DNA from: a virus
Virus record (IMG/VR): IMGVR_UViG_3300025096_002712
Location: 1-64,000 of that record
Length of the DNA: 64,000 nt
Reading direction: 5' to 3' (one strand)
Shown: piece after piece, positions 7,357-48,594 of the stretch
Numbering within the stretch: position 1 is the first letter of the stretch
How the letters are laid out: each line of letters opens with the position of its first letter
Translations under genes and position numbers: made by a program
Notes under the pieces: generated by a model
The model's database searches: none
The model's input: only the letters and a program-made list of their open reading frames with translations
What the model was told of the DNA's origin: nothing

Positions 7357-9288
7357 ATGGCTAAAGCAGTTAGTAAAGAAGTAAAATATTTAAATAGAGA
7401 TTTTTCATCGTTTAGATCTGGATTAATGGATTTTGCTAAAACATACTTTCCGAATACATATAATGATTTTAATGAGTCAGATCCAGGTATGATGTTTATA
7501 GAAATGGCATCATATGTTGGTGATGTTTTGTCATATTATATTGATGAACAATTTAAAGAAAGTATGTTAGCATTTGCAGAAGAAAAGAAAACCATATATG
7601 AAATTGCACAAGGTTATGGATATAAACCAAGACAATCTTCACCAGCCACAGTTGAATTAGATGTTTTTCAAACTGTACCCGCAAGTTCAACTATAGTAAG
7701 TTCAAATGGTTTACAACAACCAGATGAAGATTATTGTCTTACAATACCAGCAGGAATGCAAGTAACTTCCACAAATGGAACTATTTTTAGAACATTAGAT
7801 GATGTAATATTTAGTGATTCAAGTTCATTGAGTCCAAGACAGGATGATATTTATGAGGTTGATAATAATAGTAATGTTAGTAAGTGGTTATTGAAAAAGA
7901 GTAAAATTAAAGCAGTTAGTGGAACGACAACTACTGAATATGTTCAATTCGGAGCAGCAGAAAAATATAAAAGAATAGCCTTACAAAATACTCCAGTATT
8001 AGAAATAATTTCAGTAACGGATAGTGATGGAAACAAATGGTATGAAGTTCCATTTTTAGCACAAGACACAGTTTATTCAGATTTTCAAAACAATTCTAAG
8101 AACTCTCCTGATTTAGTTTCTGGAAGAAGTTTTGCACCATTCCTTTTAAAACTTGTAAAGACATCAAAACGATTTACAACTTTTATTAGACCCGATGGTA
8201 GAACAGAAATGAGGTTTGGTTCTGGAGTAGCAGCTGGAGCGGACGAAGAAATTATTCCAAATCCAAGTAATGTGGGTTCTAATTTACCAGGAACACCAAG
8301 TTTCCTTGATACATCATTTGATCCAGCAAATTTTTTAAACACAGAAACTTATGGTCAATGTCCAACTAATACAACACTTACAATTAAGTATTCTTATGGT
8401 GGTGGAGTTGGTGATAATGTAGCTTCAGGAATGACAACGAGTGTTAGTCAAATGAATGCAGAGTTTGATAATTCTGTGACTTTAAATAATAATTTAAAAT
8501 CAATTTCACAGAACTCTGTAGCAGTAACAAACCCACAACCCGCAACGGGAGGGAGTGGAGCAGAAACACTTGAAAATGTTAGAACAAATGCATTAGCTTA
8601 TTTTCAAGCACAAAGTAGAGCAGTAACTAAAGATGATTTTATAACTCGTGTATATTCATTACCAGCCAAGTATGGTAATGTAGCAAAAGTTTATATTATA
8701 CAAGATGAACAAGTTGCAGCAATAGACCAGAATACGGGAGATACAACATATCAGGCTAATCCATTAGCACTAAATATGTATATGTTGGGATATGACCAAA
8801 ATAAAAAATTAGTTAATGTAAATAACGCAGTGAAAGAAAATGTAAAAACATATTTAAGTCAGTATAGAATGATGACAGATGCAGTACAAATTAAAGATGC
8901 TTGGGTATGTAACATTGGTATTAGATTTGCTATTTTTACTAAGAAGGGATTTAATAAGAATGAAGTGGTGTTTAATTGTGTTAATAAATTAAAAGTGTAT
9001 TTTCACGCAGATAAATGGCAAATAAATCAACCAATAATTTTAGCTGATGTTGTTTCGGAATTATTATCAGTTGAAGGAGTTGCTTCCGTTGTAAAACCAC
9101 AGGCTGGTAGAGATGAGTTAATTATCGTTACTAATAAGTGGGGTTCCGCACAGGGATATTCTAATAATATATATGATATTAAATCTGCAACTCATAATGG
9201 AGTAGTATATCCATCTGTTGATCCGGCAATTTTTGAACTTAAATATCCTGATAGTGATATTCAGGGTAGAGTTTTAGGAGATATCTAA
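7357..9288 (+). CDS. Baseplate wedge protein, T4 gp6/baseplate-J-like
   Basis: 'DFNESDPGMMFIEMASYVGDVLSYY', 'GYGYKP' and 'ATGGSGAETLENVR...QSRAVTKDDF' motifs; directly follows the gp25-like gene. Confidence 0.85.
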   Translation: MAKAVSKEVKYLNRDFSSFRSGLMDFAKTYFPNTYNDFNESDPGMMFIEMASYVGDVLSYYIDEQFKESMLAFAEEKKTIYEIAQGYGYKPRQSSPATVELDVFQTVPASSTIVSSNGLQQPDEDYCLTIPAGMQVTSTNGTIFRTLDDVIFSDSSSLSPRQDDIYEVDNNSNVSKWLLKKSKIKAVSGTTTTEYVQFGAAEKYKRIALQNTPVLEIISVTDSDGNKWYEVPFLAQDTVYSDFQNNSKNSPDLVSGRSFAPFLLKLVKTSKRFTTFIRPDGRTEMRFGSGVAAGADEEIIPNPSNVGSNLPGTPSFLDTSFDPANFLNTETYGQCPTNTTLTIKYSYGGGVGDNVASGMTTSVSQMNAEFDNSVTLNNNLKSISQNSVAVTNPQPATGGSGAETLENVRTNALAYFQAQSRAVTKDDFITRVYSLPAKYGNVAKVYIIQDEQVAAIDQNTGDTTYQANPLALNMYMLGYDQNKKLVNVNNAVKENVKTYLSQYRMMTDAVQIKDAWVCNIGIRFAIFTKKGFNKNEVVFNCVNKLKVYFHADKWQINQPIILADVVSELLSVEGVASVVKPQAGRDELIIVTNKWGSAQGYSNNIYDIKSATHNGVVYPSVDPAIFELKYPDSDIQGRVLGDI

Positions 9289-19912: not shown

Positions 19913-20935
19913 ATGGGATATTTAAATAATTCAAGCCGAACATTAGACGCTATTTTGACAAAGAAAGGTCGAGAGATTTTGTCAACTGGTGGAGATTTTA
20001 ATGTTGCTAAATTTGCACTTGGGGATGACGAAATTGACTATGGATTGTGGGACACAACTCATACAAAAGGAACGGATTTCTATGGTGCAGTAATTGATAA
20101 CTTACCAACCCTTGAACCCTTCAACGATCCTTCAGAGATTATGAAATATAAACTCGTATCGAGGTCAGACGGAGTTCAGGCAATGGCTAAACTAATAGAA
20201 TTACAAGATTCTGTTAGACAATTAAAAAGTCTAAAGTGGTATGCATTAGATGAAGCTGGAGCTGGTGGAACAAGAGTTCAGGTTGGAAACACTAATACTT
20301 TTCTTGGTGTACCTGTTCAATTTGGTGTAGGTCATGTAGATAATCATGAACTTACAGTTGATTATAGTGGAGGACCAGACTCTATTTATTCTAATGGATA
20401 TGCAGGAGAAAGATTTACCTTAACATTATTAGATACAACTCAAGTAGTATTGGCACCACTTTGGGTGGATCCAGCACAGGTAGCTAGCCAACAGATACAA
20501 GAAATACTTGGAGCTCAGGGACCAGGAGCATTTGGTAAAGGTAAAGGAAAAGGTGCACCTAATGCTAATACTTCATCTGAAAGTCAGTATCTAAACATTC
20601 CAGTACCTAATAATGGTACTACTGGTTTATGGTATCCATTTGTACATTCAGTTCAACACCTTTCACAGACTATATCAGACTGTGTGGTGTCTAACGGAAC
20701 TTTTGCACATGCAAATGCACAATTTGCACCAACACAAAGTGGAAGAATTGCTTTATATCCAAAACGACTTACTTCTAATTCAAGTCCAGCAAAAACAACT
20801 TTAGTTGTTACGGGACAGACTTCAGGAGCAGTTAAGGAATTTGATGTTAAGATAACATTTAGATCTACATCATATACACCTTCGTTAGATATAGATGCAG
20901 GAACGGATACTTCACTTGATACATTTACAGGTTAA
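19913..20935 (+). CDS. Baseplate/tail-collar paralog A1
   Basis: N-terminal MGYLNN..DAILTKKGRE...KFALGDDEIDYGLW is shared by four tandem genes. C-terminal VTGQTSGA motif and an internal GKGKGKG. Confidence 0.65.
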   Translation: MGYLNNSSRTLDAILTKKGREILSTGGDFNVAKFALGDDEIDYGLWDTTHTKGTDFYGAVIDNLPTLEPFNDPSEIMKYKLVSRSDGVQAMAKLIELQDSVRQLKSLKWYALDEAGAGGTRVQVGNTNTFLGVPVQFGVGHVDNHELTVDYSGGPDSIYSNGYAGERFTLTLLDTTQVVLAPLWVDPAQVASQQIQEILGAQGPGAFGKGKGKGAPNANTSSESQYLNIPVPNNGTTGLWYPFVHSVQHLSQTISDCVVSNGTFAHANAQFAPTQSGRIALYPKRLTSNSSPAKTTLVVTGQTSGAVKEFDVKITFRSTSYTPSLDIDAGTDTSLDTFTG

Positions 20936-20967: not shown

Positions 20968-21687
20968 ATGGGATTTATAAATAATACTTCATATATCCTA
21001 AACGCAGTACTAACTAAAAAAGGTAAAGAATATCTTTCTAAAAGTAGTGGTAATTTTGCAATTACAAAATTCGCACTATCAGATGATGAGATAGATTACG
21101 CGTTATGGAATACGGCACATCCGAAGGGTAGTAATTATTATGGTGCAGTTTTAGAATCTACACCAATGTTAGAACCTTGTGTGGATCCTGAAGTTGTGAT
21201 GAAATATAAATTGTTTACAATGCCTGTGGGTACTAAAACATTACCATACATAACAGATATTACACAATTATTAAAAGTAACTGCAACTGATGGTACGGTA
21301 AATGATAGTAGGTTAAAATCTATTCAAACTGATGAAGGTAGTTGGACACTTACCGAGGCAACTATAAATCCAACAACGGTTGGAGCAGACCAATCTTTTC
21401 AGGATGAAAACTATAGTTTCTTGTGTTTAAATATGAATGTTGTTGATATGAGATTGGGAACTTTAGGTACAGGTGAAGTTTTTGATGATTTACCATTAGG
21501 TGGGGCTATTTATGGTGAAGAAAGTGGTAGATTGAGTACAAAATTAGTTGGGGAATCAATAACTATTAAGGCAAAACAGATGACATTTGATAGAGAAACT
21601 TCTATTATTATAACAGGACAAAAATCTGGAGCTATATATGTACTTAGGGTACAAGTAACATTTGATGACCAAAGGGCTAGTAATTAG
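20968..21687 (+). CDS. Baseplate/tail-collar paralog A2
   Basis: Same N-terminal motif; C-terminal ITGQKSGA motif. Confidence 0.65.
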   Translation: MGFINNTSYILNAVLTKKGKEYLSKSSGNFAITKFALSDDEIDYALWNTAHPKGSNYYGAVLESTPMLEPCVDPEVVMKYKLFTMPVGTKTLPYITDITQLLKVTATDGTVNDSRLKSIQTDEGSWTLTEATINPTTVGADQSFQDENYSFLCLNMNVVDMRLGTLGTGEVFDDLPLGGAIYGEESGRLSTKLVGESITIKAKQMTFDRETSIIITGQKSGAIYVLRVQVTFDDQRASN

Positions 21688-21689
21688 TT

Positions 21690-22178
21690 GTGGGATATAT
21701 AAATAAAACTTCATTGGCAGTGGACGCAATTCTTACTAAAAAAGGTATAGATTATTTAAGAACCGCAGTATTTGGTGAGAATCAAAATGGTGAGCATGTA
21801 ATTACAAAATTTGCATTAGCTGATGACGAAATAGATTATGGATTATGGGATGAAACTCCAAGTGGATCTAATTATGTGAGACCACTCGGTACGATAATTG
21901 ATAATCAACCAATCGTAGAACCAGTAATTACTGATAATGAAATTATGAGTTCTCTATTATTTAAAGAGGGTATAGTATTATCTACTCAACCAGAGGCACC
22001 GATAGTTTCTATTCCTCCAGTAGCAAATTTTAGTATGTTTTCGAGTGGCATACCACCTGTTTCGAAATTCAATATGAAAGCAAGAGATAGTTTAACACCG
22101 ATACCTTTAAAACCTACCCAATACAATAAATCTGGTATGAAGGGAAAAGGAAAAGGACCATTTAGTTTAAAAAATTAG
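21690..22178 (+). CDS. Baseplate/tail-collar paralog A3 (short, with two PPVxxF strands and a KGKGKG tail)
   Basis: GTG start, same N-terminal motif, then PPVANFSM, PPVSKFNM and GMKGKGKGP. Confidence 0.65.
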   Translation: MGYINKTSLAVDAILTKKGIDYLRTAVFGENQNGEHVITKFALADDEIDYGLWDETPSGSNYVRPLGTIIDNQPIVEPVITDNEIMSSLLFKEGIVLSTQPEAPIVSIPPVANFSMFSSGIPPVSKFNMKARDSLTPIPLKPTQYNKSGMKGKGKGPFSLKN

Positions 22179-22186
22179 GATAAAAA

Positions 22187-22744
22187 GTGGGATATATAGA
22201 TAAAACATCATTAACTGCAACAGCACATTTTACCAAGAAAGGTCGAGAACTTTTGGCAGATGCACTGGCAGGTTCAGTAGATGATTCTTATGTTATTACT
22301 AAGTTTGCATTAGGTGATGAGGAAATAGATTATGGACTTTGGGATGAGTCACAACCATCAAACTTACAGGGAAGAATTATTGAGAACATGCCTATACTTG
22401 AATCTTTTATAAGCCAAAAAGAAATTATGAATTCATATGTTATGGTAGAAACCCCAGAAATTACTAATGGATCTTCAATTTCTAATATCTTAGGTCAAAT
22501 ATCACTTGAGGGTGTAGGGGATACAATTGATTTAATACCATCAACTGAAAATTTAGATGAAACTGAAGAATATGAATTTTTTCTTGAAGAAGATAATGTT
22601 GTAGAGATGACAAATCCACACATACCACCAGTTTCAGATTTTAATATGAGCATTAGTATGTTACCACCACCATTGGCAGATTTTATTATGTCTATGGTAC
22701 CAGGATATCCACCTGTAGCTGGTTTTACTATGGAAGAAGCATAA
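22187..22744 (+). CDS. Baseplate/tail-collar paralog A4 (N-terminal part, ending in three PPxAxF strands)
   Basis: GTG start, same N-terminal motif, ending PPVSDFNM, PPLADFIM, PPVAGFTM. Confidence 0.65.
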   Translation: MGYIDKTSLTATAHFTKKGRELLADALAGSVDDSYVITKFALGDEEIDYGLWDESQPSNLQGRIIENMPILESFISQKEIMNSYVMVETPEITNGSSISNILGQISLEGVGDTIDLIPSTENLDETEEYEFFLEEDNVVEMTNPHIPPVSDFNMSISMLPPPLADFIMSMVPGYPPVAGFTMEEA

Positions 22745-22756
22745 AGGAGATAAAAT

Positions 22757-23209
22757 ATGGCAATTTCAGGAATAGTCCCATTAACAGTAGATTTTACTAA
22801 TACATCTATGGGAGAAAATTTATCGTATTCATGGGATTTCGGTGATGGACAAACTTCTATGGAAGCAAGCCCATCACACACTTATGAAGTAGTAGGAGAC
22901 TATACGGTAACTTTAACTACTACAAATAATTACGGAACGGATACTAAGTTAGATTATATTTCGGTTAGTCTTGGAGTAAGTTTACCACCTGAAGGTCCAG
23001 GAGAACCACCAGGAGGTAAAGGTAAAGGTAAGGGTAGCCCACCCGGCCCACCAGCAGGAATATATCAATATGGGGCCGCTGGAGGACCACCAGGAGGTAA
23101 CGGTAAAGGTAAAGGTGCACCACCAGGAGGTAACGGACAAGGACAAACAGGACCACCAGCAGGAATATATCAATATGGGGCCGCTGGACAACCACCAGAT
23201 GAAAAGTAG
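22757..23209 (+). CDS. PKD-domain protein with a Gly/Pro/Lys-rich repeat tail
   Basis: PKD signature 'PLTVDF...YSWDFGDG...PSHTY...GDYTVTLT', its own AAGGAGA SD, and a tail with GKGKGKG and GPPAGIYQYGAAG x2. Confidence 0.85.
   Translation: MAISGIVPLTVDFTNTSMGENLSYSWDFGDGQTSMEASPSHTYEVVGDYTVTLTTTNNYGTDTKLDYISVSLGVSLPPEGPGEPPGGKGKGKGSPPGPPAGIYQYGAAGGPPGGNGKGKGAPPGGNGQGQTGPPAGIYQYGAAGQPPDEK
23048..23188 (+). repeat. Exact 36-bp direct repeat (23048-23083 and 23153-23188) within the PKD tail
   Basis: CCACCAGCAGGAATATATCAATATGGGGCCGCTGGA occurs twice, 105 bp apart; CCACCAGGAGGTAA occurs three times nearby. Confidence 0.9.
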
Positions 23210-23229
23210 AAGAGTAAAGGAGGCTTGTA

Positions 23230-23664
23230 ATAGATACACCATTTGCAAATTTTGAGGTCAGAATACCTTATGTAAATAATGGTTCTTATAATGTAGCAAA
23301 AAAGAATAAATTGTTTCACAGTAATAAAATTGAAATTAGAAAATCTTCATTACAGGGATATGGAGTTTTTTGTACAAAAAATATTAAAGAGGGAGAATTG
23401 TTAGAGGAATGTCATTATTTAGAAGTTTCGGATGATGAAAAACTCGCCAGGTATTATTACAACTGGCCAAGGGGAGAAAAGTTTAAAAAATATACAATTC
23501 CACTTGGATTTGGGTGTATATATAATGGAACATCTTCTTCTGGAAAAGAAGCAAATGTGGATTGGAAAACAGATGTAGATAATGATATTTTTATATTTAT
23601 AGCAATTAAAGATATAAAAAAAGGAAGTGAATTATTATTAGATTATGATTATGGGGAATATTAG
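23230..23664 (+). CDS. SET-domain protein (putative lysine methyltransferase) 1; probable non-canonical ATA start at 23230 (track start is TTG 23311)
   Basis: SET motifs 'SSLQGYGVFCTKNIKEGELLEEC', 'GFGCIYN' and 'AIKDIKKGSELLLDY'. The frame is open upstream to TAA 23215, and AAGGAGG at 23217-23223 lies 6 nt before ATA 23230. Confidence 0.8.
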   Translation: MDTPFANFEVRIPYVNNGSYNVAKKNKLFHSNKIEIRKSSLQGYGVFCTKNIKEGELLEECHYLEVSDDEKLARYYYNWPRGEKFKKYTIPLGFGCIYNGTSSSGKEANVDWKTDVDNDIFIFIAIKDIKKGSELLLDYDYGEY

Positions 23665-23669
23665 ATAAT

Positions 23670-24005
23670 ATGTTAAGTGTAAATCAAACACCAAAAGATG
23701 GAGTAGGACAAGAAAAAACCTTGTATGGTCATGCTGTCAGATTAAGGGCTAAAAATTTGACCACTACGAGAACGACTACTTTAAAAGTAACGGGTATGTC
23801 AAGTGGGGCTGTATTTTATGTTGATATTGTTGTTACACCAAAAGGTACAGGAGAAAAGGCAGTTTTTGGAAAACCTATATCGGCACCCATAGGATTAATA
23901 TCTAATAAAAAAGGTAGAAGAAAAACACCTGCAAGTCAAAAATCTAAAGGAATTGTAAAAGGTGGAACTTTAAGTGGTACAACAACACTTAAAAGTTCAA
24001 AATAA
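23670..24005 (+). CDS. Stand-alone C-terminal domain of the paralog-A family with a basic tail
   Basis: 'LRAKNLTTTRTTTLKVTGMSSGAVFYVDIVVT' aligns with the C-termini of A1 (TTLVVTGQTSGAV) and A2 (IKAKQMTFDRETSIIITGQKSGAI). Confidence 0.65.
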   Translation: MLSVNQTPKDGVGQEKTLYGHAVRLRAKNLTTTRTTTLKVTGMSSGAVFYVDIVVTPKGTGEKAVFGKPISAPIGLISNKKGRRKTPASQKSKGIVKGGTLSGTTTLKSSK

Positions 24006-24054: not shown

Positions 24055-25158
24055 ATGGCAGAAGTAAGTAATTTTTTCACACCCATAGAGGATACGGATA
24101 AGAGGACTAATATAATTAGTACCGTTTCGTCGCCTGTATGGTCTGGTGGAACAGCAACATTAACTTCTTTCTATACAGGCTCTACGCAGAGTGCTAGTAG
24201 TGGTGATTATTACTATGACATATACGATAAAGCAGGAAGTGATACTACAAGGGCTGTACAATTTGCAGTTTCGTATGGACACGTTCATGGTAGTGGTTCA
24301 AAATCCACTTCTGCTGGTAATAATCCATCTAAGGCAATATATCGTCAGTTCAGAAACATTTGTATTAAAAACGCTCATAGTGGTGTTAGATTTAATTTTA
24401 ATGCGGACGGAGCTGGTACATCTTATGACGGAAAAGATATATTCGCAATTAGTGTAAACAGAGCACGGTACAGAGAGAAGTTGGATCCAGGAAACTGGGA
24501 ACTACATTTAAGTGGAAGTAGAGCACAAGGTCGTGGCGAATCCGTATTAAAACTCATTGATGATAGTGGTGCAACCGCAGATTCTACAATTAAAGCATCA
24601 CAAAGGAGATTTAATGTAGTTACTGGTTCAATTTCAGATGGAACTTCAAGAATAAAGACAACGGCTGTAAATCAATCAGCAGGTGGTAGTGGTTCATTTG
24701 GATATGTATATCCAGAACTTGGTATTATTGTATTAAATGCAGAAGCAATAGCTTCTCATTCTATCGGATATCATAACTCTGGTTCAGTCGCAGTTAAAAC
24801 AAATGCACTCAATCTTGTTAGGTCAAGTGGTACAAATAATGACAACGCTAAACAATTGGTAGATTGTATCAATAGTGGTTCATACTTTCAAGCAAGAAGG
24901 GAAGAACAAATTAAATCATCTCATTATTTTTGTAGAGTTAAGTCTGGAGAATATAACTATAGTCAAAACCCGACTTATTTTACGGGGTCTAATGCTGAAT
25001 TGAAAAATTCGAGTTTCGTTCAAGATCCAAAATCGTATATAACTACGGTTGGATTGTACAATGATAACAATGAATTGTTAGCTGTGGCTAAATTGAGTCA
25101 ACCGCTGTTAAAATCAAAAGACAGAGAAGCAGTAATCAAAGTACGATTAGACTTTTAG
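24055..25158 (+). CDS. Baseplate/tail-collar paralog B1
   Basis: 'RYREKLDPGNWELHL' and C-terminal 'YITTVGLYNDNNELLAVAKLSQPL..IKVRLDF', shared by three tandem genes. Confidence 0.65.
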   Translation: MAEVSNFFTPIEDTDKRTNIISTVSSPVWSGGTATLTSFYTGSTQSASSGDYYYDIYDKAGSDTTRAVQFAVSYGHVHGSGSKSTSAGNNPSKAIYRQFRNICIKNAHSGVRFNFNADGAGTSYDGKDIFAISVNRARYREKLDPGNWELHLSGSRAQGRGESVLKLIDDSGATADSTIKASQRRFNVVTGSISDGTSRIKTTAVNQSAGGSGSFGYVYPELGIIVLNAEAIASHSIGYHNSGSVAVKTNALNLVRSSGTNNDNAKQLVDCINSGSYFQARREEQIKSSHYFCRVKSGEYNYSQNPTYFTGSNAELKNSSFVQDPKSYITTVGLYNDNNELLAVAKLSQPLLKSKDREAVIKVRLDF

Positions 25159-25174: not shown

Positions 25175-26230
25175 ATGGCTTTTAAATCTTTTAATCCCGA
25201 AGATAGAGCAGAAAATATAGTCAATAAGGTAGCCGAAAGGATGTGGTCGGATAATACCGCAACTTTGACTACTTTCTATACTGGATCTACACAGAATTCC
25301 AATACTGGCAAGTATTATTTAGATGTTCATAAATCTAGCGACGAAAGTACGGATGTACAATTCGCTATATCTTATGGTCATTACGCTGGTTCTGGTTCTG
25401 AAGGTTCGACTACATCAGGAACTACTAATCCTACTAAGGCAATTTATTCACAACTGAAACAAGTTTTATTGCCACCACAAACTACTAAGTTTAATTTTCA
25501 TGGAAATTCAGGAGCAAATTACTATAGCGATGATGTTTTTGCCATTGTTAGTAACAGAGCTCGTTATAGAGAAAAAATGGATCCTGGTAACTGGGAATTA
25601 CATTTAGTAAGTGGTAGTACGACAGTAAAACTTATTGACGATAGTGGGGCAAGTCGTGACCAAAGACTTAAAGCTGCTAATAGAGAGTTTAATATAGTTA
25701 GTGGTTCAATTGCAAACGATGAGTATAGGATAAATACTACAGCATCTGCATCTGCAGCTGCAACTAATTCTGGTTCGTATGGTTTATTCTATCCAGAATC
25801 GGGTATTATTTTATTAAATCCAAATGCATTATCAAATACTCGTATGAATATAGGTAGGGCCTCTGGTTCATATGTCATTCCACAACTTGTAAAAAGTACT
25901 TCTACTAACAATTATGAACATAGAAAACTATTGGAGTCTATACAATCGGGTAGTTATTTTTCAGCACGTAGGGAAGAAGTGAGAAGAAGTTCGTTTTATT
26001 TTTGTAGAGTTGAAAATTCTGAATTTAATCATAGTCAAAATCCATCATTTTTTACAGGATCAAACGCACAATTACTTCATAATTCTTTTATTGCTGAACC
26101 AACAACTTACATAACATCTGTTGGACTTTATAATAATCAAAATGAATTATTAGCAGTGGCCAAGATGTCTAAACCATTTAAGAAGGATCCGAATACCGAA
26201 GCCTTGATCAAAGTAAGACTTGATTATTAA
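25175..26230 (+). CDS. Baseplate/tail-collar paralog B2
   Basis: Close paralog of B1 along its full length (RYREKMDPGNWELHL; YITSVGLYNNQNELLAVAK). Confidence 0.65.
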   Translation: MAFKSFNPEDRAENIVNKVAERMWSDNTATLTTFYTGSTQNSNTGKYYLDVHKSSDESTDVQFAISYGHYAGSGSEGSTTSGTTNPTKAIYSQLKQVLLPPQTTKFNFHGNSGANYYSDDVFAIVSNRARYREKMDPGNWELHLVSGSTTVKLIDDSGASRDQRLKAANREFNIVSGSIANDEYRINTTASASAAATNSGSYGLFYPESGIILLNPNALSNTRMNIGRASGSYVIPQLVKSTSTNNYEHRKLLESIQSGSYFSARREEVRRSSFYFCRVENSEFNHSQNPSFFTGSNAQLLHNSFIAEPTTYITSVGLYNNQNELLAVAKMSKPFKKDPNTEALIKVRLDY

Positions 26231-26241
26231 AGGAGATTCCA

Positions 26242-27369
26242 ATGTTTAAGGATATATCTTCTGATGATAGGTCAATACAAAATTTCAAAACTTATAAACA
26301 ATTCACCTTTACACATTCAGATAGTGGAAGTGGGGTTTTTGGACTTGAAGGAATAAGTGGAAGTTTTCATAATTTCTTAACTGGTTCCGCAGAATCTCAG
26401 AGTTATGGTGTATTTAATGCAGAATCAAAAAGTTTTGGTAAAGATTGGGATACTTGGTATAGTTGTGGAACTTTTCATAAGATACCCCTGTATTACACTA
26501 TAGCTAATTTATATTATAAATACGATAAGATTCCTAATCCTAAATCTACTACTACTAAAATGCCAGTATATACTGCCACTCCTTGGAGTAGAAAAGATCC
26601 ACACGGTAGGAGAGATTGGGGATCAATAATTCCACGACAATTACATAGTTCGGTAAATGTTATAACAATTCCACAAAAATATTTTGGAGAAGAAATTAAA
26701 CCTGGTTCTATTAAACTACTTGACGATAGTGGTGGAACAACATTAGATTTGAGAGACGATGGTCATGGACAACTTTATGATTATCAATATTCAGAAAGTT
26801 TTGCAGCAGGAACTCCAGGTGGTAGTACCAATTCTTACACAGGAAGTGTTGTTGGTAATGTATTTTATGAACATGGTTTAATAACTATTACCGATACTGG
26901 TTCATTATATAGGTCGGCAAGTTTAAAATTGGGATCAGATGGATTTTCCGTGAGATTTAAAGCTACAAAAACATCTACTGAGTATCAGTATTTATGTAAT
27001 ATAAGTAAATATGAATTTAATAGTAGTACAAACCCAAGTTTGGTTAGGGGTAGAAGTGGTAGTATATATGTTCCACATGATGCAAAATATATTTATGATG
27101 GTGATATACAAAAAGGAACTTTATACCCACCACTTTATGCAAAAACTATAGATTTGGTATTACAGGCAGCAAGTAGTTCTTATGATGTAACATATAATCC
27201 AGGAACATTATATGAAAACTTCACCACACATTCAGAATTTGGGACATATATTACAAATGTTGGTTTATATAATGATTCAAATGAGTTATTGGCTATTGCA
27301 AAATTATCAAATCCTATAAAAAATGAAAAAGATTTACCACTTTCATTTTTAGTACGATTTGACTCATAA
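26242..27369 (+). CDS. Baseplate/tail-collar paralog B3
   Basis: 'FGEEIKPGSIKL' and C-terminal 'YITNVGLYNDSNELLAIAKLSNPIK...VRFDS'. Confidence 0.6.
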   Translation: MFKDISSDDRSIQNFKTYKQFTFTHSDSGSGVFGLEGISGSFHNFLTGSAESQSYGVFNAESKSFGKDWDTWYSCGTFHKIPLYYTIANLYYKYDKIPNPKSTTTKMPVYTATPWSRKDPHGRRDWGSIIPRQLHSSVNVITIPQKYFGEEIKPGSIKLLDDSGGTTLDLRDDGHGQLYDYQYSESFAAGTPGGSTNSYTGSVVGNVFYEHGLITITDTGSLYRSASLKLGSDGFSVRFKATKTSTEYQYLCNISKYEFNSSTNPSLVRGRSGSIYVPHDAKYIYDGDIQKGTLYPPLYAKTIDLVLQAASSSYDVTYNPGTLYENFTTHSEFGTYITNVGLYNDSNELLAIAKLSNPIKNEKDLPLSFLVRFDS

Positions 27370-46512: not shown

Positions 46513-47898
46513 ATGGCACAAATTTTACCATTTAAATTAAATATTGAAACCGTAAAAGGCCATACAATATCATATGCAACATCATCATTTGCAAAAACAG
46601 ATGAGGCCGGCCTTAGTGGATCTGTTATTTTAAGTAGAATAGATTCTATGCCTTCTATATCTTATAGTTCAAACGAAGTAATAGGAGGTGCAGCCTCACC
46701 GGCACACACTTTTTCACATGCAAATAATATTTGGATTTCTGCTTCAATGAATAGTACACATCACGGGTCAGGTTCAATTACATTTCATCATACAGATTCA
46801 TCGGATGTGAATGATAGATTAAAAAGATATAGATTTTTTGGTGATAAAGTATGTGCTGTTCTTGGATTACCTTCACGTCATTGGATATATCCAGTCAATT
46901 TTCAATTGTCCGATGCAACTGGTGTAGCAAATTATTTTGCTGGGGATGTATCTGCAGACTCTTTGAATGTTGCAAATAGTTTTAATATGTCACCGCTAGC
47001 CTCATCTACATCACATGTCAGACTTAATGCTACATCAGGAAGTAATGATGTGTTTTTCTTAGTTTCAAGTGGATCAGGTGCCTTTCAAAAAAATATGATA
47101 CAGATTGGGTATAATACAGATGATGATAAGTTTGTTATACGAGGTGGAACTGGAGAAAGTAGTCAAGGGGCTTATATTGATGATTTCATAAGTGTAACAT
47201 CTAATTATGTCGATTCGTGGTATTTCAGACAAAAAGCAGTTACTGATTCTTATATAAAGCTTTATAGTGATAGTTTCACCTATAAATCAGAAGGTGAGGA
47301 TTGTGTATATTTTGAGAAAATATCATCTAGCCCTCCAAGACGGAGATATAGGTTTGGTAATCCAGGCGTCAATGGTGTTCCTTCTGAAGTAGGCATTGAA
47401 TCAGATTTCATTTTTTCTGCATCAGGATCTGCTAATGGTATGAATTATACAATTTGTGCTAAAGGTGAAAAAGATGAGGGTTTTGTTGGAATACGAGAAC
47501 AGAGTCCGTCTTATCCACTTGAAGTTTCCGAGCACGTTTCAAATATATCTATATACGCAGAATATGATGTAGCAGCTTATTCGGATATTAGAGTTAAAAC
47601 GGATATAGAAACTATTACTGAACCATTAGATAAAGTATTAAAATTAAGAGGTGTTACTTTTAGAAGAACTGATGATAGTGCAAGTGATAGAGTAATGATG
47701 GGATTAATTGCACAAGAAACCGAACCTATTGTACCTGAAGTTGTTGTTACAAATGAAAATCCTGAAAGTGGTAAACGATATGGACATAAATCAATTTCAT
47801 ATGGAAACCTTGTAGGATTATTAATAGAGGCAGTAAAAGAACAACAAGAACAAATAGAAGAATTAAAACAACAAGTAAAGGAGATAAAAGATGGTTAA
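46513..47898 (+). CDS. Tail fibre/spike with a C-terminal peptidase S74 intramolecular chaperone
   Basis: 'YSDIRVKTDI', 'GLIAQETE..VPEVV' and 'ISYGNLVGLLIEAVKEQQ' plus a coiled coil. Confidence 0.85.
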   Translation: MAQILPFKLNIETVKGHTISYATSSFAKTDEAGLSGSVILSRIDSMPSISYSSNEVIGGAASPAHTFSHANNIWISASMNSTHHGSGSITFHHTDSSDVNDRLKRYRFFGDKVCAVLGLPSRHWIYPVNFQLSDATGVANYFAGDVSADSLNVANSFNMSPLASSTSHVRLNATSGSNDVFFLVSSGSGAFQKNMIQIGYNTDDDKFVIRGGTGESSQGAYIDDFISVTSNYVDSWYFRQKAVTDSYIKLYSDSFTYKSEGEDCVYFEKISSSPPRRRYRFGNPGVNGVPSEVGIESDFIFSASGSANGMNYTICAKGEKDEGFVGIREQSPSYPLEVSEHVSNISIYAEYDVAAYSDIRVKTDIETITEPLDKVLKLRGVTFRRTDDSASDRVMMGLIAQETEPIVPEVVVTNENPESGKRYGHKSISYGNLVGLLIEAVKEQQEQIEELKQQVKEIKDG

Positions 47899-48181
47899 AT
47901 GGGGTGGTAAAGAAAATACAATAATACCAAAATGTGTATGTCCAACAAGTGGAGTAATATATTTGTCTGAAATAAGACAAGAACTTGAATCAACGAGTAA
48001 TTCAAATGATTATGGTAATGGGCCATGGACTACTAATACGACAACATTAAAAAATTGTAATCTCTTCGTGTATGATAGTAGAAATACTAATTCAGATGAT
48101 TATCCAAATAGTTCAGAACCACATAAGATGACAGAGTGGTATAGTTATCATCATAACGCAACAAGTGGTATGGGGATGTAA
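47891..48181 (+). CDS. Small fibre-tip-associated protein
   Basis: 'PTSGVIYLSEIRQEL...PHKMTEWYSY' pattern of small proteins that follow S74 fibres. Confidence 0.5.
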   Translation: MVKWGGKENTIIPKCVCPTSGVIYLSEIRQELESTSNSNDYGNGPWTTNTTTLKNCNLFVYDSRNTNSDDYPNSSEPHKMTEWYSYHHNATSGMGM

Positions 48182-48594
48182 TGAATAAATTATTTCATAA
48201 TAATAAAATTGAAGTTAGGGATTCATCTATACATGGACGAGGAGTTTTTGCAAAAGAAGATATTAAAAGTGGTGAAATCTTAGAAGAATGTCATTATATT
48301 GTGGTAGATGATGGTAATTCACACGATATGCCACTTTATAAATGGCGTCGTTTAACAGATAGTAATATACAAATTGATGAACGGAAATTTCAATGGCCTA
48401 AAGGTGAAGATTTTGAAAAATATACAATACCATTTGGATTTGGTACTATATACAATAGTGTATTAAACGAAGAAGAAAGAAGTGTTAATTGGGAAAATGA
48501 TTTAGATAGAGATATTTATAGATTTTTTACAGTTAAAGATGTAAAAAAAGATGAAGAACTTTTATTATATTATCATAATGGCAAATTTAAATAA
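48181..48594 (+). CDS. SET-domain protein (putative lysine methyltransferase) 2
   Basis: 'SSIHGRGVFAKEDIKSGEILEEC', 'GFGTIYN' and 'KDVKKDEELLLYY'; clear paralog of SET 1. Confidence 0.8.
   Translation: MNKLFHNNKIEVRDSSIHGRGVFAKEDIKSGEILEECHYIVVDDGNSHDMPLYKWRRLTDSNIQIDERKFQWPKGEDFEKYTIPFGFGTIYNSVLNEEERSVNWENDLDRDIYRFFTVKDVKKDEELLLYYHNGKFK

Follow-up and report, generated by a model that had tools for sequence, protein, structure and literature searches.

Why a phage should encode a PKD domain without its first β-strand, strand A, when short peptides resembling that strand occur in the proteins encoded beside it, is the question raised by a gene cluster in the first 64 kb (positions 1 to 64,000, hereafter the window) of the 106-kb, ~45% complete IMG/VR virus record IMGVR_UViG_3300025096_002712. 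The cluster comprises a gene for a 2844-residue giant protein, then four tandem paralogs (A1–A4), the open reading frame (ORF) of the strand-less PKD protein, a SET-domain ORF and a small ORF (Table 1); the phage has a myovirus-type baseplate gene as well (gp6-like wedge, 7357–9288). A preliminary description, made from the DNA sequence alone, had read the arrangement as a docking system in which the truncated PKD is completed by peptide tags on its neighbors. This interpretation is partly supported by our analysis, the computational tests able to refute it having come out in its favor, and we regard strand complementation in trans, a phage “tag/catcher”, as the best reading of the locus and on balance a probable one.

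The PKD gene starts at 22757 behind an AAGGAGA Shine-Dalgarno (SD) site and lacks the first strand, just as the preliminary description had it. Its product scores above the curated Pfam cut-offs for both PKD_4 (PF18911; 64 bits, cut-off 27) and PKD (PF00801; 52.3, cut-off 23.5), and the PKD_4 match (E-value 1.4e-17) pairs residues 7–66 with profile positions 20–79 of 85; the first ~19 positions, strand A among them, are therefore not encoded in the ORF, and the coverage places the cut in the domain exactly between strands A and A'. A complete one-chain PKD domain has strand A at profile positions ~1–18, which the window ORF does not contain, and the orthologs (39–59% identical to the window PKD) begin at position 19 or 20. 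AlphaFold2 (AF2) predicts a PKD-type β-sandwich with a predicted local distance difference test (pLDDT) score >90, and this aligns by VIA-align to the PKD of 1l0q with Z 13.3 and a root-mean-square deviation (rmsd) of 2.2 Å over 87 aligned residues. No other PKD domain was found in the whole 106-kb record.

The candidate donors of the missing strand are the tags, two in A3 and three in A4, each of which lies where the preliminary description had placed it (Table 1). The strict pattern PP[VL][AS]xFxM matches these five peptides and no others in the window's 50 ORFs of at least 90 amino acids (20,660 amino acids), and in 500 per-protein shuffles the mean and the maximum number of matches were both 0; the tag observation holds and is well beyond what chance would give. 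A census with the looser pattern P-x-[AST]-x-F-x-hydrophobic, covering dereplicated ORFs from about 100 loci, identified 163 tags in 13.7k residues of A4 (67 of 70 proteins tagged), one to three tags apiece in 29 of 62 A3-like proteins, and tags in 14 of 55 small-ORF proteins and 10 of 17 SET proteins. All other proteins had 2 tags in 79k residues, and a strand-A tag is present in none of the 86 distinct orthologs of the strand-less PKD. The tag is 7–8 residues long with the consensus P-x-[A/S/T]-[N/D]-F-x-[M/aromatic]; conservation is seen at residues 0 (P), 3 (A/S/T), 4 (N/D) and 7 (M or aromatic), residues 2 and 6 are variable, and the constancy of residues 1 (P) and 5 (F) is imposed by the search pattern. 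Positions 3, 5 and 7 alternate, as would be expected of the one buried face of a β-strand lying against a hydrophobic core. Among A4 orthologs (53–65% identical to window A4) the tag residues P148 and F152 are invariant and P176 and F180 nearly so, and tag starts are spaced 14–20 residues apart. The class of residue 7 is uniform within a genome: there are M-type genomes, among them that of the window, whose A3 and A4 tags end in M, and aromatic-type genomes, in which F, Y, W or H closes the tags of A4 and the small ORF. That this class spans several protein classes at once fits a common partner.

We scanned IMG/VR and JGI metagenome contigs with the N-terminal domain shared by A1–A4 and with an A4 alignment, and about a hundred uncultured marine phage contigs, from many independent metagenomes, were found to carry the split. 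The A4-to-PKD junction is present in 93 loci (56 distinct junction sequences), and the concern of the preliminary description, that relatives might have one continuous A4-PKD gene, is answered by the retention of the split in these loci. Tag multiplicity, which it had also proposed to check, holds in relatives too: A4 orthologs end in 1–5 tags, mostly 2 or 3, with the last usually 2–7 residues from the A4 stop. The ORF after the junction opens with M-x(2-12)-P-L/V-T-V/I-x-F-[TSN]-[DN]-[TS]-S, the A' strand of PKD. Loci L131 and L132 have the gene order PKD, SET, A4, small ORF, and there A4 keeps three tags and PKD is still without strand A even though the genes are apart; hence nothing depends on the junction itself, and the two parts form a pair without having to be neighbors.

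The identity of the last tag comes from one lineage (L009, L010, L117, L124 and L166) with a 269-residue A4 in which tag 3 runs directly into a full PKD (PPTADFTE, a 7-residue loop, then PLNVEFTDTS). The Pfam PKD_4 match to the L010 fusion covers profile positions 4–78 with the tag at positions 4–10, and therefore tag 3 is PKD strand A; window tag 3 (PPVAGFTM) aligns with the PPTADFTE of this natural A4-PKD fusion. The fused lineage leaves tags 1 and 2 free and retains a strand-less PKD ORF downstream. In the PKD tree the fused form is one clade of two rows inside a polytomy. Roughly 40 A4-type clusters are present in a collection of 5.8 billion proteins, only one of them with PKD Pfam domains, and the fused A4-PKD form was not found among the longer proteins of that collection that were searched. 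We also modeled the window's in-frame read-through product with AF2 (TAA read as G, residues 1–268, ortholog alignment). In this model PKD is predicted with pLDDT >90 and tag 3 as a strand at 180–184 (pLDDT ~70), the N-domain and half-sandwich of A4 have pLDDT <50, and whole solved PKD domains superpose on the model from residue 172–174, e.g., 6aem (residues 2–85 of 84; Z 11.8, rmsd 1.8 Å, 80 aligned) and 4aqo (795–880 of 86; Z 12.0, rmsd 1.6 Å, 81 aligned). As the model is a single chain that resembles solved structures, it shows compatibility, not binding.

A further tag is found on an enzyme. The SET-domain protein (Pfam SET PF00856; E-value 8.9e-11, 42.6 bits against a cut-off of 22.4, profile 1–104 of 105) is listed from a TTG start at 23311, which is without a ribosome-binding site, and the perfect SD site upstream serves an extended frame (Table 1). 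The resulting 27-residue N-terminal extension is kept in every SET gene that adjoins a PKD gene (at least 10 orthologs), its consensus opens with [M/I]-x-P, and an ATG lies directly before it in L106, L111/112 and L131. Since the extension is conserved and preceded by an ATG in relatives, the SET tag, which the preliminary description had pointed out in this in-frame extension, is real and translated. It follows the genome class, with E-[VLI] in M-type and T-F in aromatic-type genomes, and is absent from the paralog SET2 (48181–48594) and from more distant SETs. The SET enzyme may dock on PKD by this tag. No loci were recovered when the SET protein or P0005 was used as a single query sequence.

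In addition, A4 may itself be one half of a divided domain. By hhalign, A4 residues 1–145 (22187–22621) correspond to positions 1–146 of the A2 profile (E-value 1.9e-41), and the small ORF matches positions 164–210 of the same profile (probability 95%, E-value 3.2e-8). As A4 and the small ORF thus cover one A2-type protein, they form a second candidate split sandwich of the same module, and to judge from these alignments it is possible that they are a second split domain. The aromatic-type clade has the small ORF placed between A3 and A4, and there its C-terminus bears one tag.

Table 1. Coordinates of the proteins, tags and translation signals of the cluster in the window.
Feature	Position	Strand	Description
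Paralog A1	19913..20935	+	Shared N-domain and a bigger C-terminal part; untagged, as are the A1-like proteins of relatives
Paralog A2	20968..21687	+	N-domain (1–90) and Ig-like β-sandwich (about 115–235); untagged; whole-length reference of the family
Paralog A3	21690..22178	+	N-domain, then a tail with two tags and a GKGKG end
A3 tag 1, PPVANFSM	22014..22037	+	Strict motif
A3 tag 2, PPVSKFNM	22053..22076	+	Strict motif
Paralog A4	22187..22744	+	N-domain, first half of an A2-type sandwich, then three tags
A4 tag 1, PPVSDFNM	22625..22648	+	Strict motif
A4 tag 2, PPLADFIM	22667..22690	+	Strict motif
A4 tag 3, PPVAGFTM	22709..22732	+	Ends 3 residues short of the stop; proposed strand A of the next-encoded PKD
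A4-to-PKD junction	22742..22759	+	TAA stop overlapping the SD site (TAAAGGAGA), second in-frame TAA, then ATG
Strand-less PKD protein (150 residues)	22757..23209	+	PKD fold from strand A' (residues 1–~70), then a Gly/Pro/Lys-rich tail
SD site of the extended SET frame	23216..23223	+	AAAGGAGG; perfect; 6 nucleotides before the in-frame ATA 23230
SET-domain protein	23230..23664	+	Read from ATA 23230; 27-residue N-terminal extension
SET tag, TPFANFEV	23236..23259	+	Ortholog consensus P-x-[AS]-[NKS]-F-[ET]-[VLIF]-x-x-P-Y
Small ORF (111 residues)	23670..24005	+	Residues 12–60 correspond to the last strands of an A2-type Ig-like sandwich

In the mechanism that we propose, the PKD protein would be translated from its own SD site and ATG just past the A4 stop and would have an open edge. 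One tag strand would insert at this edge, where strand A would otherwise pair, burying its small residue, its F and its large hydrophobic residue, and the PKD would thereby be fastened non-covalently to the tagged protein and would present its hypervariable Gly/Lys-rich tail. The part of this scheme in which we have most confidence is that the last A4 tag completes PKD in trans, which we consider fairly likely. That the other tags, including that of SET, use the same socket, with one PKD gene serving several tagged proteins, we would put somewhat short of an even chance. An extended chain of 14–20 residues roughly equals the length of an immunoglobulin (Ig)-like domain, given the dimensions of such domains; the tag spacing being of this order, several PKDs could line up bead-like along the A4 tail, and we infer from the tandem tags, as did the preliminary description, that several PKD copies may be loaded on them. 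In its fullest form the proposal would be a natural tag/catcher with one PKD adaptor for four tagged protein classes (the two tail-region paralogs, the half-sandwich protein and the SET lysine methyltransferase), beads on A4, SET brought to the Lys-rich GKGKG tail or to the virion, and a second split sandwich besides; we offer this whole tentatively, as possible but rather doubtful. If it is true, putting proteins together from domain fragments would be a general principle of construction in this phage group.

Several points weigh against complementation in trans and its extension to all of the tags. In the window there are six tags for one PKD gene, and any stoichiometry proposed for them is conjecture; the covariation of residue 7 amounts to one deep phylogenetic split and therefore counts as a single event. 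The fused strand of L010 ends in E, not in a hydrophobic residue, so that it is not the same as the free tags, and the SET extension could instead belong to the enzyme's own fold. As to the models, tags 1 and 2 have pLDDT ~40, a single-chain read-through model is biased to close the fold with the nearest strand, and AF2 confidence in PKD would probably be high with or without strand A, so that pLDDT is silent on donor dependence. Finally, the placement of the A and PKD proteins on the baseplate, or on the virion at all, is suggested by gene order and neighborhood only.

Of the other explanations, the one that survives best is that only the terminal A4 tag complements PKD, one to one, and that the remaining tags form a small sheet of their own, bind another virion protein or belong to the SET fold. 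The last tag alone adjoins the PKD gene, tag 3 alone is fused in cis in L010, and tags 1 and 2 are modeled as a low-confidence hairpin; moreover the last tags differ slightly from the internal ones (residue 3 mostly A versus S/T/A, residue 4 N versus N/D), and in the SET tags position 6 is E or T and a conserved x-x-P-Y comes after the tag, which is not seen in other tags. However, the internal, A3, small-ORF and SET tags all keep P1, a small residue 3, F5 and a hydrophobic residue 7, and the class of residue 7 switches together with that of the last tag. A one-to-one pairing also sits poorly with L010-type genomes, which retain a strand-less PKD gene though tag 3 is occupied in cis, and with L017 and L019, each of which encodes two strand-less PKDs. 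We consider this alternative unlikely. Less likely again, and in our view improbable, is that the truncated PKD folds and works alone, the tags being an unrelated linear motif (e.g., for strand addition to some other partner) descended from an old strand A. While strand A is peripheral in Ig-like folds, and the PKD N-terminus is not always free (PKD ORFs of L129, L133 and others have a 60–70-residue N-terminal extension), the tags hold the strand-A consensus over a deep radiation and only in clusters with a strand-less PKD; in none of the 86 PKD orthologs has strand A been restored to the protein itself, and the sole PKD with strand A gets it from tag 3.

Recoding, by stop-codon read-through or frameshift, would join A4 and PKD covalently and remove the need for a donor in trans. 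Appended Ig-like domains produced by frameshift are known in phage structural proteins, Fraser et al. being said to have described in 2006 the addition of such domains by programmed frameshifting, and A4 and PKD share a reading frame in the window, as they do in 27 of the 56 distinct junctions. Such appended domains have a fixed frame relation and no independent start, neither of which is seen here: frame offsets of 0, +1 and +2 occur in 27, 12 and 17 junctions, respectively, and therefore no single read-through or frameshift could join A4 and PKD. An ATG is present in 56 of 56 junctions and an SD-like site in 54, the A4 stop is TAA in 51 and overlaps the SD site (TAAGGAG), and the spacer is 10–14 nucleotides in 45. 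In the window two in-frame TAA codons (22742 and 22751) stand between the genes and no tRNA is encoded, hence no suppressor there, and in L131/L132 the genes are not even neighbors, so that recoding is largely refuted and its likelihood is very slight. That the split reflects decay of the gene or faulty assembly in this one contig, which the preliminary description had raised against itself and which has in its favor only the oddity of a domain cut in two, is refuted by the same split in 93 loci.

The tail of the PKD protein, which strand complementation would put on display, is its most variable part among relatives, with GNGKG repeats (long in some), poly-Q, PPGG repeats, Lys-rich stretches or a Pretoxin-HINT domain. 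The window tail has two GKGKG and two copies of PPAGIYQYGAAG (23048–23083 and 23153–23188), the latter loosely tag-like (P-x-G-x-Y-x-Y). A pilus-like chaining of PKD on PKD through tail motifs was judged not to be general because such relaxed tags are restricted to the window/L098 lineage and L016. The window contains GKGKG at four places, 20534 (A1), 22143 (the A3 C-terminus), and 23015 and 23102 (the PKD tail), and the SET lysine methyltransferase gene adjoins. In several relatives the Gly/Lys-rich tail is replaced by the Pretoxin-HINT autoprocessing domain (Pfam PF07591; E-value 2.7e-24 on L011), namely in L011:7893-8558, L120:2819-3475, L123:2038-2688, L167:703-1356 and L172:1257-2036, with a start at the boundary G/CFIAGT and an end at VHN-K plus 2–7 residues; its presence at the PKD tail suggests self-cleavage or thioester chemistry. 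A deeper branch (L021:8001-10954 and L022:6759-8707) has an A4-like protein of 418–426 residues with variant tags, P-[QI]-V-D-F-[EG]-[LM], followed by a PKD protein of up to 557 residues, again without strand A and with a long, highly charged Arg/Lys/Glu/Ala tail. In the aromatic-type clade, PPPGF and PPGW motifs repeat in the A4 and PKD tails (L016:8001-8627, L169:3001-3621, L172:1257-2036).

An alignment of A1–A4 shows the N-terminal domain common to them to be ~90 residues long, with the pattern MGYxNxTS..TKFALxDDEIDYxLW. The A-family is widespread (826 cluster representatives at E-values of 1e-3 or less), and the shared N-domain has no Pfam, PHROG or PDB sequence match; PHROGs gave no match for A1–A4, PKD, the small ORF or the 350-residue paralogs described below, and ESM Atlas searches returned unnamed viral clusters only. 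In the AF2 model of A2 (85-sequence alignment) residues 1–90 are of low confidence and the Ig-like sandwich at 115–235 has pLDDT >90. The best structural matches of this sandwich are generic Ig-like domains (Z 7.7–6.7, rmsd 2.7–3.7 Å, 88–100 residues aligned), including a Big_2 domain (7quz; Z 7.7, rmsd 2.7 Å, 88 aligned), the Ig domain of T5 pb6 (Z 7.3, rmsd 3.0 Å, 92 aligned) and that of lambda gpV (Z 6.7, rmsd 3.2 Å, 90 aligned), and at such scores they indicate a common fold and nothing more. Two cultured phages with A-family members, Microcystis phage Mel-JY01 and Flavobacterium phage immuto, have a single untagged A protein each, annotated as hypothetical, and no relative of the strand-less PKD was found in either. 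Three more paralogs of about 350–375 residues lie downstream of the cluster (24055–25158, 25175–26230 and 26242–27369), none of them matched by sequence in Pfam, PHROG or PDB; relatives of the first occur in Rhodothermus phage RM378 and in the two phages just named, always adjoining an A gene. A short N-terminal module, ..KLRYxVKWGGxxNTxIPKM.., heads some PKD ORFs and a protein of the 350-residue family in relatives (the PKD ORFs of L129, L133-L137, L140 and L143; L131:2066-2524 and L131:5020-5688), and in the window it heads a 96-residue ORF (47891–48181) directly upstream of SET2. This module could represent a further docking or substrate motif, shared between proteins and connected with SET.

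That an Ig-like fold can be completed by a strand from another protein is already established for bacterial pili, and engineers arrived at the idea again with SpyTag/SpyCatcher. The literature searched contained no description of donor-strand or strand complementation in connection with phage, PKD or baseplate, although its coverage was partial and this is weak evidence of novelty. If complementation in trans is correct, phages would have evolved the same trick with a PKD domain and with tandem tags on several proteins and an enzyme. It would also offer a rule for reading phage structural modules, in which a “truncated” domain together with short repeated motifs may represent a docking pair and not decay. 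As a practical matter, the locus would supply a small natural peptide/domain pair for protein assembly, of which the M-type and aromatic-type versions may be orthogonal, and a testable way for a phage to bring a lysine methyltransferase to the proteins of its virion.

The known systems that come close include the Ig-like and PKD decoration domains that phages display on virion proteins, where they probably help the particle adhere weakly to surfaces or glycans, such as T4 Hoc and frameshift-appended domains, the K1F minor capsid frameshift being a described case (PMC13370021). Those domains are whole and are a covalent part of a structural protein or of a dedicated decoration protein, whereas here the domain is divided between two genes. 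The whole PKD domains of ColG collagenase and of Vibrio PrtV/Epp share the fold (35–44% identity, Z 11.8–12.0, rmsd 1.6–1.8 Å, 78–81 residues) but have strand A in the same chain, which the window PKD does not. In mechanism, the proposed pairing resembles the chaperone-usher pili (Fim, Pap, Caf1), in which an Ig-like subunit without one strand exposes a hydrophobic groove, and a short alternating-hydrophobic strand of another polypeptide completes the fold and holds the proteins together (PMC9046445). Both elements, an Ig-like subunit lacking a strand (the 86 PKD ORFs) and a matching donor sequence on other polypeptides, are found here. The missing strand, however, is the C-terminal G in pili and the N-terminal A in PKD, and where the pilus donors are a chaperone strand and then the N-terminal extension of the next pilin, here they would be tandem, mostly C-terminal tags on several unrelated proteins and an enzyme. 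Pili also require a periplasmic chaperone and an usher, and the present setting is a phage structural gene cluster; none is evident here, although no search was aimed at them, and as neither would be expected in such a module we file the system as one that works like chaperone-usher assembly and not as a member of it. In SpyTag/SpyCatcher (split CnaB2), a β-sandwich is divided into a strand tag and a catcher, whose re-association loads proteins onto a scaffold. Pairs of that type are man-made and locked by an isopeptide bond, whereas the pairing proposed here would be natural, conserved and presumably non-covalent, with several tags per scaffold.

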